Shown in pieces: positions 7,689 through 12,524 of a DNA stretch of 25,293 bases (position 1 is its first letter; every line of letters starts with the position of its first letter). A model generated the notes under the pieces. It did no database searches and was not told where the DNA came from. It worked only from the letters and a program-made list of their open reading frames with translations. This DNA comes from a virus. The stretch is from UHGV virus genome UHGV-0110227; one strand, given 5' to 3'. A program made the translations under genes and the position numbers.

Positions 7689-8331
7689 TGGCAGCAAATA
7701 CCGAAATATTTGGGTAGTTGGCGATCTGCACGGATGCTACACGAACCTGATGAAAAAACTGGAGACGATAGGATTCGACACCAAAAAAGACCTGCTTATC
7801 TCGGTTGGCGATTTGGTCGATCGCGGTGCAGAGAACGTCGAATGCCTGGAATTAATCACATTCCCTTGGTTCAGAGCTGTACGTGGAAACCATGAGCAAA
7901 TGATGATTGATGGCTTATCAGAGCGTGGAAACGTTAATCACTGGCTGCTTAATGGCGGTGGCTGGTTCTTTAATCTCGATTACGACAAAGAAATTCTGGC
8001 TAAAGCTCTTGCCCATAAAGCAGAAGAACTTCCGTTAATCATCGAACTGGTGAGCAAAGGTAAAAAATATGTCATCTGCCACGCCGATTATCCTTGTGAC
8101 GAATACGAATTTGGAAAGCCAGTTGATCATCAGCAGGTAATCTGGAACCGCGAACGAATCAGCAACTCACAAGACGGGATCGTGAAAGAAATCAAAGGCG
8201 CGGACACGTTCATCTTTGGTCATACGCCAGCAGTGAAACCACTCAAATTTGCCAACCAGATGTATATCGATACCGGCGCAGTGTTCTGCGGAAACCTCAC
8301 ATTGATTCAGGTACAGGGAGAAGGCGCATGA
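7666..8331 (+). CDS. Serine/threonine protein phosphatase (lambda PPase / NinI type, metallophosphoesterase)
   Basis: Translation from ATG 7666 ([29 protein letters not shown]...GDLVDRG...GNHE...) carries the PPP-family motifs GDxHG, GDxxDRG and GNHE. The track start at 7591 is an upstream extension overlapping ninH. Confidence 0.92.
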
Positions 8332-8951
8332 GACTCGAAAGCGTAGCTAAATTTCATTCGCCAAAAAGCCCGATGATGAGCGACTCACCACGGGCTACGG
8401 CTTCTGACTCTCTTTCCGGTACTGATGTGATGGCTGCTATGGGGATGGCGCAATCACAAGCCGGATTCGGAATGGCTGTATTCTGTGGTAAGCACGAACT
8501 CAGCCAGAACGACAAACAAAAGGCTATCAACTATCTGATGCAATTTGCACACAAGGTATCGGGGAAATACCGTGGTGTGGCAAAGCTTGAAGGAAATACT
8601 AAGGCAAAGGTACTGCAAGTGCTCGCAACATTCGCTTATGCGGATTATTGCCGTAGTGCCGCGACGCCGGGCGCAAGATGCAGAGATTGTCACGGTACAG
8701 GCCGTGCGGTTGATATAGCAAAAACAGAGCAGTGGGGGAGAGCTGTTGAGAAAGAGTGCGGAAGATGCAAAGGCGTCGGCTATTCAAGAATGCCTGCAAG
8801 CGCCGCATATCGCGCTGTAACGATGCTAATCCCCAACCTTACTCAACCCACCTGGTCACGCACTGTTAAGCCGCTGTATGACGCTCTGGTGGTGCAATGC
8901 CACAAAGAAGAGTCAATCGCAGACAACATTTTGAATGCGGTCACACGTTAG
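8328..8951 (+). CDS. Q: Late gene antiterminator Q (lambda-type)
   Basis: 207 aa. Translation [48 protein letters not shown]...[12 protein letters not shown]...CGRCKGVGY matches lambda Q including the zinc-binding Cys motifs. A pR'-type promoter follows immediately. Confidence 0.93.
8615..8628 (-). promoter_or_regulatory. CII-binding box TTGC-N6-TTGC inside Q (paQ-like anti-Q promoter)
   Basis: Minus strand reads TTGCGAGCACTTGC. Lambda carries a CII-activated antisense promoter within Q. Confidence 0.55.
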
Positions 8952-8993
8952 CAGCATGATTGCCACGGATGGCAACATATTAACGGCATGATA

Positions 8994-9022
8994 TTGACTT
9001 ATTGAATAAAATTGGGTAAATT
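8994..9022 (+). promoter_or_regulatory. Late promoter pR' (-35 TTGACT, 17-bp spacer, -10 TAAATT), with the overlapping qut region
   Basis: TTGACT at 8994-8999 and TAAATT at 9017-9022, directly downstream of Q. The sequence context is nearly identical to lambda pR' as I recall it. Confidence 0.85.
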
Positions 9023-9028
9023 TGACCC

Positions 9029-9221
9029 AACGATGGGTTAATTCGCTCGTTGTGGTAGTGAGATGAAAAGAGGCGGCGCTTACTACCGATTCCGCCTAGT
9101 TGGCCACTTCGACGTATCGTCTGGAACTCCAACCATCGCAGGCAGAGTGGTCTGCAAAATGCAATCCCGAAACAGTTCGCAGGTAATAGTTAGAGCCTGC
9201 ATAACGGTTTCGGGATTTTTT
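9029..9221 (+). ncRNA. 6S-like late leader RNA (pR' transcript ending at tR' when Q is absent)
   Basis: The distance from the predicted pR' start to the tR' T-run is about 193 nt, the size of the lambda 6S RNA. Track ORFs 9063..9410 (+) and 9083..9391 (-) fall here and are treated as non-coding. Confidence 0.6.
9163..9221 (+). terminator. tR' intrinsic terminator
   Basis: AATCCCGAAAC ... GTTTCGGGATT long hairpin followed by TTTTTT at 9216-9221. Confidence 0.85.
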
Positions 9222-9617
9222 ATATCTGCACAACAGGTAAGAGCATTTGTAGAGTTCGACTCTCTACCGTGGGCTTTTTCCCGCGATGCGAGCCATAAAT
9301 GCTCTTTCCGTTGTGCTGAATTAAGCGAATGCCGGAAGCAGAACCGGATTACCAAATGCGTACAGGCGTCATCGCCGCCCAGCAACAGCACAACCCAAAC
9401 TGAGCCGTAGCCACTGGCTATCCTGAATTCATCAGTGATAGTTATGCTGCGGCTTTCTACACATGACCTTCGTGAAAGCGGTGGCAGGAGGTTGCGCTAA
9501 CAACCTCATGCCGTTTTGCCCGTGCATATCGGTCACGAACAAATCTGATTACTAAACACAGTAGCCTGGATTTGTTCTATCAGTAATCGACCTTATTCCT
9601 AATTAAATAGAGCAAAT

Positions 9618-9631
9618 CCCCTTATTGGGGG
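9618..9631 (+). promoter_or_regulatory. sdi-like stem-loop just upstream of the holin dual start
   Basis: CCCC-ttatt-GGGG hairpin immediately 5' of the Met1-Lys2-Met3 start at 9638 and 9644, as in lambda S translational control. Confidence 0.6.
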
Positions 9632-9637
9632 TAAGAC

Positions 9638-10421: not shown

Positions 10422-10866
10422 GCTGGTTATTTCTGCTTTCCTCCTGACTTTATTCGGTTATCTCGTCTGGTCAGCTAATCATTACCACAATAAAGCCATT
10501 GAATACAAAAAACAGCGCGACGAAAACGCTATGGCATTAGATTCGGCTATGGCGACGATCTCTGATATGCAGAAGCGTCAACGTGACGTAGCAGAACTCG
10601 ATGCCAGATATACAAAGGAGCTTGCTGATGCTAACGCGACTATCGAAAGTCTCCGTGCTGATGTTTCTGCTGGGCGTAAGCGCCTGCAAGTCGCCGCCAC
10701 CTGTGCAAAGTCAACGACCGGAGCCAGCGGCATGGGCGATGGAGAAAGCCCAGGACTTACAGCAGATGCTGAACTCAATTATTACCGTCTCCGAAGTGGA
10801 ATCGACAAGATAACCGCACAGGTCAACTACCTGCAGGAATACATCAGGGCGCAATGCCTGAAATAA
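10405..10866 (+). CDS. Rz: Rz i-spanin (inner-membrane spanin subunit)
   Basis: ATG at 10405 gives 153 aa with an N-terminal transmembrane helix (LVISAFLLTLFGYLVW) and a coiled-coil periplasmic domain. The C-terminal two thirds resemble lambda Rz; the N-terminus is divergent. The track start at 10372 is an upstream extension. Confidence 0.85.
   Translation: MKLRYKLVISAFLLTLFGYLVWSANHYHNKAIEYKKQRDENAMALDSAMATISDMQKRQRDVAELDARYTKELADANATIESLRADVSAGRKRLQVAATCAKSTTGASGMGDGESPGLTADAELNYYRLRSGIDKITAQVNYLQEYIRAQCLK
10628..10813 (+). CDS. Rz1: Rz1 o-spanin lipoprotein, embedded in the +1 frame of Rz
   Basis: AAGGAG SD at 10615-10620 then ATG at 10628. Translation MLTRLSKVSVLMFLLGVSAC... has a lipobox-like VSAC, followed by a proline-rich mature region (KSPPPVQSQRPEP). 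61 aa. Confidence 0.8.
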   Translation: MLTRLSKVSVLMFLLGVSACKSPPPVQSQRPEPAAWAMEKAQDLQQMLNSIITVSEVESTR

Positions 10867-10897
10867 TTTTTTTGCAAATCACAAAGTCCATTTAATG

Positions 10898-10921
10898 AGC
10901 CTCGCGATGCGGGGCTTTTTT
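10898..10921 (+). terminator. Candidate intrinsic terminator after the lysis cassette (imperfect stem plus T6)
   Basis: AGCCTCGCGATGCGGGGCT followed by TTTTTT. The stem contains a bulge. Confidence 0.4.
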
Positions 10922-11068
10922 ATGTCCGCAGTAAACGCGCTTCACACGCGCGACTTATGAACACAGAACCTTTCAGGATGACCCTTGAGGATGCCGGTTT
11001 GGTAATCGGTGCCTTTCTGTGGGCCGGAATCCTGTGTGACAAGGTTCATCACTAAAAGGTAATTACCG

Positions 11069-11611
11069 ATGAATTATCCAACTATCGTTGACGGCATTGA
11101 TTTCAAAGAACTGGTTTTTATTACCAACAATGACCCTGTCACCGATTCATTTATGGTGGCGAAAGCATTTCGTAAGCGACATGACAACGTTGTGCGTGAT
11201 GTAGAAAGAACTATCGCTGCTTGTCCTGAAGAGTTTGATACAAAACTCAATTTTGAGGTTTGCTATAAAAACAATGAGTTACAGAATGGTAAGCCACAAA
11301 AATTCTATCGGCTACGTAAGGATGGGTTGATGCTTTTGGTTATGTCCTACACCAAAAAAGAAGCAATGCGTATCAAAATTGCTTACATCAACGCATTCAA
11401 CTGGATGTACGCCATGCTTCAGGTTGGTCATCGTCAATTTGAAGAAGAGAGAAATGCCGTAATGCTGGAGTACATGAAAGAGAAGGATGTTGCCAGCATG
11501 TCAGGCCGTCTGCTTAATCGCTGGGGAAAAATTAAGAAGCCTCAGCTACTGGCGAGAATTGAACGCCTTGAACAGCACGGGCAAACCGTAATCCCCGGAC
11601 TCACCAATTAA
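11069..11611 (+). CDS. Rha-family phage regulatory protein (N-terminal Rha domain)
   Basis: 180 aa. N-terminal motif VAKAFRKRHDNVVRDVERTI and a downstream YRLRKDGLMLLVMSYTKKEAMRIKIAYINAFN segment resemble the Rha family signature as I recall it. Confidence 0.65.
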   Translation: MNYPTIVDGIDFKELVFITNNDPVTDSFMVAKAFRKRHDNVVRDVERTIAACPEEFDTKLNFEVCYKNNELQNGKPQKFYRLRKDGLMLLVMSYTKKEAMRIKIAYINAFNWMYAMLQVGHRQFEEERNAVMLEYMKEKDVASMSGRLLNRWGKIKKPQLLARIERLEQHGQTVIPGLTN

Positions 11612-11746
11612 CGGCAGTACAGCGAAACAACCCAAGCCAGTAAGTGGGGAAATAACACTGGCAGCCACTGAAAGATGAACCTCCAGCCTTATGGCAAAAA
11701 AGATTCTTTGTGGTGACGGACTGATGGAAAGACATCGGTTATTGCA

Positions 11747-11769
11747 GAGACCACTCAATGAGTGGTCTC
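11747..11769. repeat. Perfect 10-bp inverted repeat GAGACCACTC-aat-GAGTGGTCTC
   Basis: Exact palindromic arms with a 3-nt loop in the intergenic region upstream of the packaging genes. No T-run follows. Confidence 0.6.
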
Positions 11770-11791
11770 GACAATGGCTTATACCCTACAC

Positions 11792-11817
11792 GGGATAACT
11801 TAACTGATATCCCTTTT
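11792..11817 (+). repeat. Hairpin GGGATA-(10 nt)-TATCCC followed by TTTT
   Basis: 6-bp stem and a short T-run, 21 nt upstream of the ATG at 11839. Weak terminator-like or regulatory stem-loop. Confidence 0.35.
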
Positions 11818-11838
11818 AACGGATAAACGGAGCCAACA

Positions 11839-12081
11839 ATGGCAGAGATTATTCCCATGACTGAAGAACAGAAATTCCAGTTAGAGATTTACAAACTGGT
11901 CATGAACCAGAACGCAGCCGCAGAAGAAGCATTTCAATTCATTGGCACTGACGAACTGAAGCTTGAGCTATTCAAAATTCACTTCCAGTCAGGTGGCGCT
12001 AATTCAGATATCACGACCCGAACTATCGAAGCGGTGCGTAAATCGAAGGAAGCGTTAGACCTGTTCACTACCGGAGCATAA
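11839..12081 (+). CDS. Hypothetical protein (80 aa) immediately upstream of, and coupled to, the small terminase gene
   Basis: ATG at 11839 with GGAG SD. Stop TAA sits 2 nt before the TerS ATG. No family recognised. Confidence 0.6.
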   Translation: MAEIIPMTEEQKFQLEIYKLVMNQNAAAEEAFQFIGTDELKLELFKIHFQSGGANSDITTRTIEAVRKSKEALDLFTTGA

Positions 12082-12083
12082 AC

Positions 12084-12524
12084 ATGGCGCGCCCAACAAA
12101 GTATCAAGAGGCGTATGCCGAACAGGCGCGCAAACTGTGCTTGCTGGGCTACACCGATGCAGAGCTTGCTGATTTCTTCGAAGTCAGTGAGTCAACTATT
12201 AACAAGTGGAAGCTTGATTATCCTGAGTTTTCGGAGTCCATAAAAAAGGGTAAGGCCGTTGCTGATGCAGAAGTTAGTGATCGTCTTTATCAACGCGCTA
12301 TGGGCTTCGTGGCTCCAGACATCGATATTCGTGTTATTGAAAACAGAATTGTCGAAACTCCGCTTGAGAAGTATTACCCGCCTGATACAACCGCCGCCAT
12401 CTTCTGGCTTAAGAACCGACAGAAGGATAAATGGCGCGACAAGGTTGATCACGAACTAACAGGCAAAGACGGCGGCGCAATTCAGATTGAAACATCACCG
12501 ATGAGCACTCTATTCGGAAAATGA
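12084..12524 (+). CDS. Terminase small subunit (P22/Sf6-type C-terminal region, divergent N-terminal DNA-recognition domain)
   Basis: 146 aa. N-terminal HTH-like LGYTDAELADFFEVSESTINKW. C-terminal ELTGKDGGAIQIETSPMSTLFGK resembles the Sf6 small terminase tail as I recall it. Translationally coupled to TerL (ATGA overlap). Confidence 0.85.
   Translation: MARPTKYQEAYAEQARKLCLLGYTDAELADFFEVSESTINKWKLDYPEFSESIKKGKAVADAEVSDRLYQRAMGFVAPDIDIRVIENRIVETPLEKYYPPDTTAAIFWLKNRQKDKWRDKVDHELTGKDGGAIQIETSPMSTLFGK

Follow-up and report, generated by a model that had tools for sequence, protein, structure and literature searches.

In phage P22, the late operon runs from gene 15/Rz through rha, orf25, pid and orf80 to gene 3; orf80 is the DUF2560 gene, and pid, a moron on the opposite strand, is located between orf25 and orf80 (PMC8835761). 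The isrK-orf45-anrP locus of Gifsy-1 consists of a terminator, a small open reading frame (ORF) with conserved nucleotides but variable amino acids and an antirepressor gene, and the translation of anrP depends on RNA refolding (PMC4825925). The DNA analysed here, the 25,293 nucleotides of the UHGV virus genome UHGV-0110227 (hereafter the window), comes from a P22-like (Lederbergvirus) prophage, of which it represents the late region. The element in question is a leader RNA of about 125 nt which lies between a terminator and the rha gene following Rz/Rz1. It very probably exists as a conserved structured RNA. The original prediction, made from the letters of the window, had placed a 32-codon ORF in this position and missed the RNA; on comparative evidence the DNA beneath that ORF is a conserved structured RNA.

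The P22 rha locus occupies the same place in the late operon as that of the window. The two have in common the terminator, a leader recognisable as homologous in P22 (28.6 bits with our covariance model R1 and 30.2 bits with R2), the C-terminal ORF11CD3 part of Rha, the non-coding block 3' of rha and orf80/DUF2560. In contrast, the N-terminal half of Rha does not align at the DNA level, the window is devoid of the approximately 630-bp pid segment, and the P22 leader has its own P2, PK and P4 sequences (see below) and includes the annotated GTG start of rha. Along the DNA, P22 matched the window up to 10921, diverged through the leader and the N-terminal domain of Rha, and rejoined at 11440 in the ORF11CD3 half; the match went on to 11797, where P22 has the extra pid segment, and was resumed at 11825.

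The Gifsy-1 locus and the c4-icd-ant immI region of P1/P7 have the same architecture and logic as the window and are its closest analogues in logic. They differ by belonging to another RNA family, by a trans-acting small RNA, none of which is evident in the window, and by their position directly after PR', as the window's element follows the lysis genes. Homology to isrK/orf45 was rejected, as R1 found nothing in Gifsy-1 at E up to 10. The Rfam families isrK (RF01394), C4 (RF01695) and c4-a1b1 (RF03163) gave no match in the window at the gathering score or at E up to 5. The same three families do match in Gifsy-1, and the Gifsy-1 locus is therefore taken as a P1 c4-type system. The C4 antisense RNA was found inside 'orf45' and the c4-a1b1 target overlapping isrK (record L132, 34131-34329, minus strand), so that by sequence isrK-orf45-anrP resembles a c4-icd-ant immunity module of the P1 type, placed immediately after the Q gene.

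The 133 nt from the terminator to the rha ATG are conserved at the nucleotide level ahead of unrelated genes. R1 and R2 scored 186 and 183 bits, respectively, at the leader, and this was their sole significant match in the window. A pattern scan of IMG/VR resulted in at least 120 matches with 83 distinct leaders. R1 and R2 each leave some helices unfitted, and the R2 alignment was fitted only to P1, P3, P4 and P5. In the MAFFT alignments P2 or P4 was off by one column in some leader types, and an all-against-all column covariation scan on the MAFFT alignment was swamped by clade structure. By comparison of the leaders, compensatory changes were demonstrated in five helices, P1, P2, P3, P4 and the pseudoknot helix PK (Table 1). 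They went beyond the controls, as expected for a structured RNA family, and P2 and PK were supported without an alignment as well.

All five pairs of P1 were changed on both sides, with the variants UGCGC/GCGCA, UGCGU/ACGCA, GUGUC/GACAC and CGCUU/AAGCG. P3 differs in length among the relatives, and 9 of its 11 pairs were changed on both sides. The alignment fitted to P4 gave 9 of 9 such pairs in the core helix of P4; of its two outer pairs one was changed on both sides and the other was invariant. The variant pairs of P4 include CCCUG/CAGGG, UGAGCCUG/CAGGCUCA, AACGA/UCGUU, AAUGA/UCAUU and CGUGA/UCACA, P22 has AAUGGGCCUUUG/CAAAGGUUCAUU, and the central position varies from C.U through G.U to G-C.

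The heptamer just 5' of the CUUUCAG block, the 5' strand of P2, always has a downstream complement. At least eight sequence pairs were found, including CUCAGAA/UUCUGAG, CCAAGAA/UUCUUGG, CCAAAGA/UCUUUGG, UCCCGAG/CUCGGGG, CGCAGAG/CUCUGCG and, in P22, CCACCGA/UCGGUGG, and the cognate pairs scored 6.4 versus 4.5 for non-cognate ones. On the R1 alignment 7 of 7 P2 pairs were changed on both sides with 98% of the cells paired, and on the R2 alignment, where P2 is unfitted, one pair still appeared as AU (32), CG (24), UA (8) and GC (3). PK occurs in at least nine variant pairs, among them UCUCAC/GUGAGA, UCGCAC/GUGCGA, UGCCC/GGGCA, CGCCC/GGGCG, UUCACC/GGUGAA and CCGCA/UGCGG, the last being that of P22. 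The PK score was reached by none of 5000 random re-pairings, and on R2, an alignment not fitted to PK, 5 of the 6 pairs were changed on both sides and 95.5% of the cells were paired.

For the whole structure, 91% of the cells were paired and 34 of the 45 pairs were changed on both sides. None of 500 shuffles reached any of the measures, and slid 3' partners resulted in 27-52% pairing. Because the 3' strand of P2 lies between the strands of P4, the two helices cross in the topology of an H-type pseudoknot, with P3 at the junction. The blocks CUUUCAG, GGSYGG and YCUG are conserved and unpaired. As the G.U wobbles, e.g. the U.G in UCCCGAG/CUCGGGG, are valid on the plus strand only, the structured molecule is the sense RNA.

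These results bear on the view that the conservation is one of DNA, the leader being a recombination linker (boundary sequence) or a promoter or operator of the cargo. In its favour, the modules next to the leader are exchangeable, the annotations of CUS-3 and Sf6 include boundary sequences, and recombinant leaders exist. However, the compensatory double changes in the five helices largely refute this view, and the G.U wobbles are valid for the plus strand only. A consensus sigma-70 scan detected no sigma-70-like promoter in 10500-12200, no consensus site of the integration host factor (IHF) was found near the gene or the cassette, and terminator and P1 are separated by a variable spacer of 1 to about 17 nt. 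Conservation at the DNA level is thus extremely unlikely. One of the recombinants, a natural chimeric leader (record L067, 2515-2654), joins P1 and the 5' strand of P2 of one type to the body of another, with both P2 and PK mismatched; it may be non-functional and serves as a natural control.

The 32-codon ORF itself was confirmed at its predicted position, and no Shine-Dalgarno (SD) sequence precedes its ATG, as had been noted; its standing as a gene was not upheld. Across 81 distinct homologous leaders the longest ORF with an ATG start measured 0-43 codons, and the downstream peptides were in differing frames. The peptide of the window was found in 5 of the 81, so that start, frame and length are not conserved as they would be in a protein-coding small ORF. 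The ATG is missing in Sf101, CUS-3, phiKp30 and P22, and the frame is disrupted in relatives by stops and by indels of 1-3 nt, shifting even between close relatives. The match of the peptide to PHROG 16173 shows no more than that annotators have called it before. Judged from these comparisons, the ORF is a by-product of the leader sequence.

The layout of Gifsy-1 (PMC4825925) suggests another possibility, in which the leader acts through a translated small ORF coupled to the cargo, like orf45-anrP, and the RNA structure regulates the access to the ORF start. The TAA of the window's ORF lies inside the conserved CUAAAAGG, right before the SD of rha, 71 of the 81 leaders hold some ATG ORF of at least 10 codons, and the PHROG family exists. 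Against this, 10 of the 81 have no ATG ORF of such length, the stop position varies together with the start codon, length and frame, close relatives differ by 1-nt indels, the window's ATG is devoid of an SD, and the Gifsy-1 region belongs to the different, C4/isrK-type RNA family in which R1 finds nothing. A coupled ORF is therefore considered quite unlikely.

The RNA also bears on the annotation of rha. In P22 (L002, AB362338.2) the annotated rha begins at a GTG at position 1817, within the leader RNA (P22 region 1735-1888), and an ATG at 1886, preceded by GAAGG, aligns with the rha start of the window. In CUS-3 a 203-aa 'hypothetical protein' (L004, 1944-2555) is a leader-rha fusion resulting from a 1-nt deletion. 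By sequence, both annotations probably over-extend the N-terminus of Rha.

Table 1. Positions of the features in and around the Rz-DUF2560 interval of the window.
Feature	Position	Strand	Description
Q-like antiterminator gene	8328-8951		followed by holin, endolysin, Rz/Rz1
Intrinsic terminator (predicted)	10897..10923	+	stem 10897-10905 / 10909-10917, loop GAU, then U-run
Leader RNA, conserved and structured (very probable)	10936..11059	+	~125 nt, P1 to rha SD; covariance models, covariation
P1 hairpin	10936..10952	+	CGCGC (10936-10940) / GCGCG (10948-10952), loop 10941-10947
PK 5' strand	10942..10947	+	P1 loop UCACAC, pairs with 11034-11039
32-codon ORF	10957..11055	+	chance reading frame within the leader RNA, not a conserved gene
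P2 5' strand	10962..10968	+	CACAGAA, pairs with 11015-11021
Anti-SD block (putative)	10969..10973	+	CCUUU, able to pair with SD 11055-11059 (P5)
P4 5' strand	10977..10987	+	GAUGA-C-CCUUG, pairs with 11040-11050
P3 hairpin	10988..11014	+	AGG/CCU closing pairs, then UGCCGGUU-UGGU-AAUCGGUG
P2 3' strand	11015..11021	+	UUCUGUG, between the two P4 strands
PK 3' strand	11034..11039	+	GUGUGA, directly 5' of P4 3' strand
P4 3' strand	11040..11050	+	CAAGG-U-UCAUC
SD of rha	11055..11059	+	AAAGG, 9 nt before ATG 11069
rha	11069..11611	+	180-aa Rha-family protein; Phage_pRha residues 25-113, ORF11CD3 residues 125-176
Conserved non-coding block	11612..11736	+	precedes the Gp49-like gene in Sf6 and phiKp30
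14-bp hairpin	11741..11775	+	AUUG..GAGACCACUC-AAU-GAGUGGUCUC..CAAU; fold and inverted-repeat self-match
Empty pid moron site	11797..11825	.	P22 carries ~630 bp here
DUF2560 gene	11839-12081		directly 3' of the region studied
Small terminase gene (presumed)	12084-12524		followed by large terminase, portal

The reading which we favour, and hold to be moderately probable, is that of a widespread late-operon cassette composed of a terminator, a structured leader RNA and exchangeable cargo, where the leader gates the translation of the cargo. The role of the leader as a translational gate, taken on its own, is a tentative proposal reasoned from the fold. As the spacer from the terminator to P1 varies and no promoter was detected in it, the leader is most simply a part of the antiterminated late transcript, and it would be transcribed within the Q-antiterminated late message. 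The leader would control the translation of the cargo by alternating between two structures. One is the compact double pseudoknot P1-PK-P2-P3-P4, where the SD would be free and CCUUU confined to the linker that joins P2 and P4; with P2 formed, CCUUU would have to span the groove of P4, out of the reach of the SD. With P2 open, CCUUU-CAG-P4 may extend to a long hairpin (P5 + P4) in which CCUUU pairs with the SD, and single-sequence minimum free energy (MFE) folds predict this hairpin. The 5' strand of P2 abuts the anti-SD block without a linker, therefore P2 and P5 would be mutually exclusive. The SD region is conserved as CUAAAAGG in most leaders. Candidate triggers shifting the balance of the folds are a ligand, a protein, temperature, RNA processing and co-transcriptional folding. 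Rha itself would most likely act late in infection as an antirepressor-like DNA-binding regulator.

Several points weigh against this reading. P5 was paired in 99% of the cells and occurs in single-sequence MFE folds, but the helix shows almost no variation and was in part prescribed by the search pattern, and its pairing is thus uninformative. The exclusion between P2 and P5 is a geometric argument from the adjacency of the strands. The MFE of the whole leader is unremarkable, with z = -1.45 for the window and -2.5 for Sf101; single-sequence MFE folds missed the pseudoknots. The leaders come from few related clades, so that the shuffle counts overstate independence, and each alignment was fitted to a part of the structure. 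Full-text literature, including the Hfq-CRAC paper on enterohaemorrhagic Escherichia coli, contained nothing relevant to the leader motif, in a limited check by which an earlier description could be missed.

In Rfam 15 no match to the leader was found, either for the whole window at the gathering score or for 10700-12000 at E up to 5. Only two matches at chance level appeared, asX2 with 26.5 bits on the minus strand (its gathering score is 70) and Proteo-phage-1 with 16.8 bits. An AGGAUG direct repeat is present at 10975-10980 and 10988-10993, 13 nt apart, which resembles the GGA sites of CsrA. Control by CsrA was rejected as the motifs, although carried by window-type leaders, are absent from Sf101-type leaders, which have GAA instead, and are not universal.

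A compact, pseudoknotted fold of several helices and about 100 nt, located between phage genes, is typical for a self-cleaving ribozyme. The double-pseudoknot RNA could accordingly be a self-cleaving ribozyme or an RNase processing site separating the cargo mRNA from the lysis mRNA; besides the general likeness, the strand order of P2, P4 and P3 resembles P1, P2 and P3 of hepatitis delta virus (HDV)-like ribozymes by inspection, and the conserved unpaired blocks would suit such a function. However, no Rfam ribozyme family matched at E up to 5, and the HDV-like hallmarks were absent on inspection. The first pair of P2 is C-G, U.G or A-U and not a G.U in the required orientation, P3 has a tetraloop, and there are no L3/J1-4 partners for a P1.1, so that an HDV-like ribozyme was rejected. 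Cleavage or processing at the leader is, on the whole, unlikely.

As to the cargo, the Pfam domains encoded behind the leader are AntA, KilA-N (with P63C or with ORF11CD3), ANT/KilAC, Phage_pRha and P22_AR_N, and further two types of HNH_3 and T5orf172/MUG113. Iyer, Koonin and Aravind (2002, cited in PMC8951638) reportedly described a set of domain-shuffled viral DNA-binding regulators; their account covers proteins and is not known to describe a shared RNA leader. The cargo of the leader consists of exactly these shuffled domains (KilA-N, Rha, AntA, P22_AR_N, ANT/KilAC, ORF11CD3, P63C, T5orf172), with the difference that HNH_3 nucleases are also present. In P22-like phages the leader precedes Rha genes after Rz, and in O157/Shiga toxin (Stx) prophages it precedes P22_AR_N-type 'antirepressor' genes between endolysin and Rz; both placements sometimes occur in one late operon.

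Window-like leaders of about 85% identity or more were detected in 806 of 5426 complete E. coli genomes at 2280 places, with a median of 2 and up to 8 copies per genome and no RefSeq feature beneath them. The leader segment of the window is 100% identical to E. coli strain E-93 (NZ_CP112988.1). The leader is carried by 298 phage records, mostly those of Stx-converting phages. Among species-representative genomes, 22 matches confirmed by the covariance model were found in 17 genera of Enterobacterales: Siccibacter, Raoultella, Arsenophonus, Entomohabitans, Pseudocitrobacter, Serratia, Tatumella, Edwardsiella, Erwinia, Salmonella, Providencia, Chimaeribacter, Pantoea, Yersinia, Buttiauxella, Intestinirhabdus and Citrobacter. 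The matches of the genome pattern scan outside Enterobacterales were mostly due to chance and were filtered out by the covariance model.

Two leader cassettes were observed within single prophages in the records L011 (509-651 and 1873-2012) and L104 (568-703 and 1714-1854), and L025, L092, L013, L027, L158 and L173 also have two leader matches each; in an example layout one lies between endolysin and Rz and the other after Rz. Wherever the copies were comparable (L011, L104, L025, L158, L173), their P2/PK types differed. Such a difference may serve to avoid recombination or RNA cross-talk. Another possibility is that the 5' module, i.e. the P1 loop and the 5' strand of P2, is a c4-type antisense determinant, and that the P2/PK types are trans specificities among co-resident prophages, forming an immunity or cross-talk code. 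Both 5' segments have 3' partners, two in number and in antiparallel order, like a'/b' with a2/b2 in P1 c4-icd-ant (PMC12197685), and the differing types of the two-leader prophages and the up to 8 copies per genome would fit such a code. Covariation, however, does not distinguish pairing in cis from pairing in trans, of which the former is simpler. After P2 there is no evident 3' end that would release a small RNA, the terminator lies upstream, the divergence of the copies is equally explained by avoiding deletion through homologous recombination, and elsewhere in the window there is no complementary partner of at least 12 nt, only 9-11-mers at chance level. A c4-type determinant is thus very unlikely.

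The structured leader RNA beneath the ORF is the part worth following, and its novelty can only be bounded by Rfam 15 and the limited literature search. It may tentatively be regarded as a double-pseudoknotted RNA of a class not yet described, either a small ribozyme or a translational gate akin to a riboswitch, which forms the common 5' end of hypervariable antirepressor-like and nuclease genes in lambdoid and P22-like late operons across Enterobacterales, with the P2/PK types perhaps being specificities against interference between cassettes. Rha, KilA-N, Ant and Bro-type genes are among the commonest and least understood phage genes and are routinely annotated as antirepressors without known control, and a highly structured leader common to them offers a tangible entry point to the timing and manner of their synthesis. 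About 15% of complete E. coli genomes contain the leader, most Stx-phage late operons among them, where it adjoins the lysis genes; at present it either has no annotation or figures as a hypothetical protein. The leader further accounts for an annotation artefact that recurs, namely spurious small ORFs and the N-terminally extended rha of P22 and CUS-3. If the RNA were ligand-sensing or self-cleaving, it would be a new RNA class within well-studied model phages.

Upstream of the leader, the predicted terminator was found in place as a 9-bp stem with 6 G-C pairs followed by UUUUUUAU in the consensus scan, i.e. a G+C-rich hairpin directly before a U-run, as is characteristic of an intrinsic terminator. 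The hairpin folds with -15.1 kcal/mol. Of 60 representative relatives, 46 have a hairpin and T-run just 5' of the leader, the stems being of different sequence, and the terminator is therefore considered reasonable and normal and not weak, as it had been described.

The assignment of the gene following the leader to the Rha family was confirmed. Phage_pRha (PF09669) scored 82.8 bits (cutoff 29.9), and PHROG 518, 'Rha-like transcriptional regulator', matched with E = 2e-81. The C-terminal half, for which a domain search had been proposed, is ORF11CD3 (PF10549; 91.1 bits, cutoff 25). Over residues 10-180 the protein is 58% identical to Rha of the P22-like Salmonella phages As3 and UAB_Phi20, the closest P22-like ones listed.

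The original prediction had suggested cargo for defence or lysogenic conversion; in this view the insert would be expressed from the prophage, Rha would exclude other phages and the hydrophobic peptide would be a membrane factor. The slot is variable and adjoins the known moron site pid, and Henthorn and Friedman (1995, cited in PMC8951638) reportedly found that rha products suppress the growth of phages in IHF-defective hosts, the phenotype by which the Rha family is defined genetically from phi80 and P22. On the other side, no PADLOC-DB 2.0 family matched Rha or DUF2560 at E up to 0.01, rha lies in sense orientation within the late operon, no promoter was found by the sigma-70 scan, the upstream terminator would block transcription that is not antiterminated, and the small peptide is not conserved. 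Furthermore, in the transcriptome of the BTP1 prophage five genes exceeded 100 transcripts per million (bstA, cI, pid, gtrC and gtrA), and rha was not among them (PMC7067206). Defence or conversion cargo is therefore highly improbable.

A classical moron has its own promoter, a downstream terminator and expression from the prophage. The cassette resembles lambdoid morons such as P22 pid in being accessory late-operon DNA that varies between relatives, and the pid site adjoins it; it differs in that the scan detected no promoter, the terminator precedes the gene, and the gene reads in the direction of late transcription. By the consensus sigma-70 scan it thus does not have the own promoter and downstream terminator of a moron in the sense of Juhala et al. 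2000.

The late operon is, as predicted, broken for about 1 kb after Rz/Rz1: the Rz stop is at 10866 and the DUF2560 start at 11839, leaving a gap of 972 bp with the intrinsic terminator, the 32-codon ORF, rha and a non-coding stretch of 227 nt that folds strongly. Its accessory character was also borne out, since the slot between Rz and DUF2560/terminase varies among relatives. Sf6 has neither leader nor Rha but gene 65, a block corresponding to window 11612-11736, the Gp49-like gene 66 and DUF2560; phiKp30 has Rha and a Gp49-like gene; and a prophage of avian pathogenic E. coli (APEC) has a KilA-N gene in place of Rha. Because relatives fill the slot differently, Rha is accessory and not a core gene of every P22/Sf6-type late operon. 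As a novelty the insert does not stand, as P22 itself has rha at the same position; the slot and its Rha occupant are ordinary and long known.

The predicted structure of the roughly 230 bp after rha was supported. The 227 nt (11612-11838) fold with -70.3 kcal/mol (z = -4.6), and none of 200 shuffles folded as well; the fold is dominated by the 14-bp hairpin. The sequence diversity of the stretch is low. The conserved non-coding block is 96-98% identical behind five different cargo genes and may, judged by this conservation, be a second leader or regulatory element. Segments of about 125 nt nearly identical to it were observed in P22, Sf6 (L253, 2960-3084), phiKp30 (L006, 2473-2607), Sf101 and the window. 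The 14-bp hairpin has no U-run and occupies the place of the Gp49-like gene of phiKp30 and Sf6. Since A-to-G and C-to-U changes in S.Inf 5-2, Sf101 and CUS-3 keep the pairing only as G.U on the plus strand, they suggest an RNA hairpin (a stabiliser or an RNase III site) and not a protein-binding palindrome. At the pid site, phage P6 annotates a Pid protein. A small ORF at 11691-11798, in the region aligning with P22 orf25, is the counterpart of a 24-codon ORF annotated in Sf101 and had no family match in Pfam or PHROG.

The phage records closest to the window are S.Inf 5-2, phiKp_30, CUS-3, Sf101 and P22. The presumed small terminase is annotated so in CUS-3 and 720R6; it has no Pfam family above threshold and only weak helix-turn-helix or terminase-like matches (E about 0.01-0.07). 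In the approximately 690 bp between the Q-like gene and holin (8952-9637) the sole long ORFs are an overlapping opposite-strand pair, 9063-9410 (+) and 9083-9391 (-), which matched nothing tested. No tRNA genes were found there, or by ARAGORN in the whole window, unlike in Sf6 and 720R6, which carry tRNA-Asn and tRNA-Thr between the Q-like gene and holin. An extra segment of about 150 bp 5' of the terminator, with a 50-codon ORF overlapping the end of Rz, is absent from the window, S.Inf 5-2 and phiKp30, and is present in Sf101 (L001, 1655-1807), CUS-3, 720R6 and Sf6 (gene 65).

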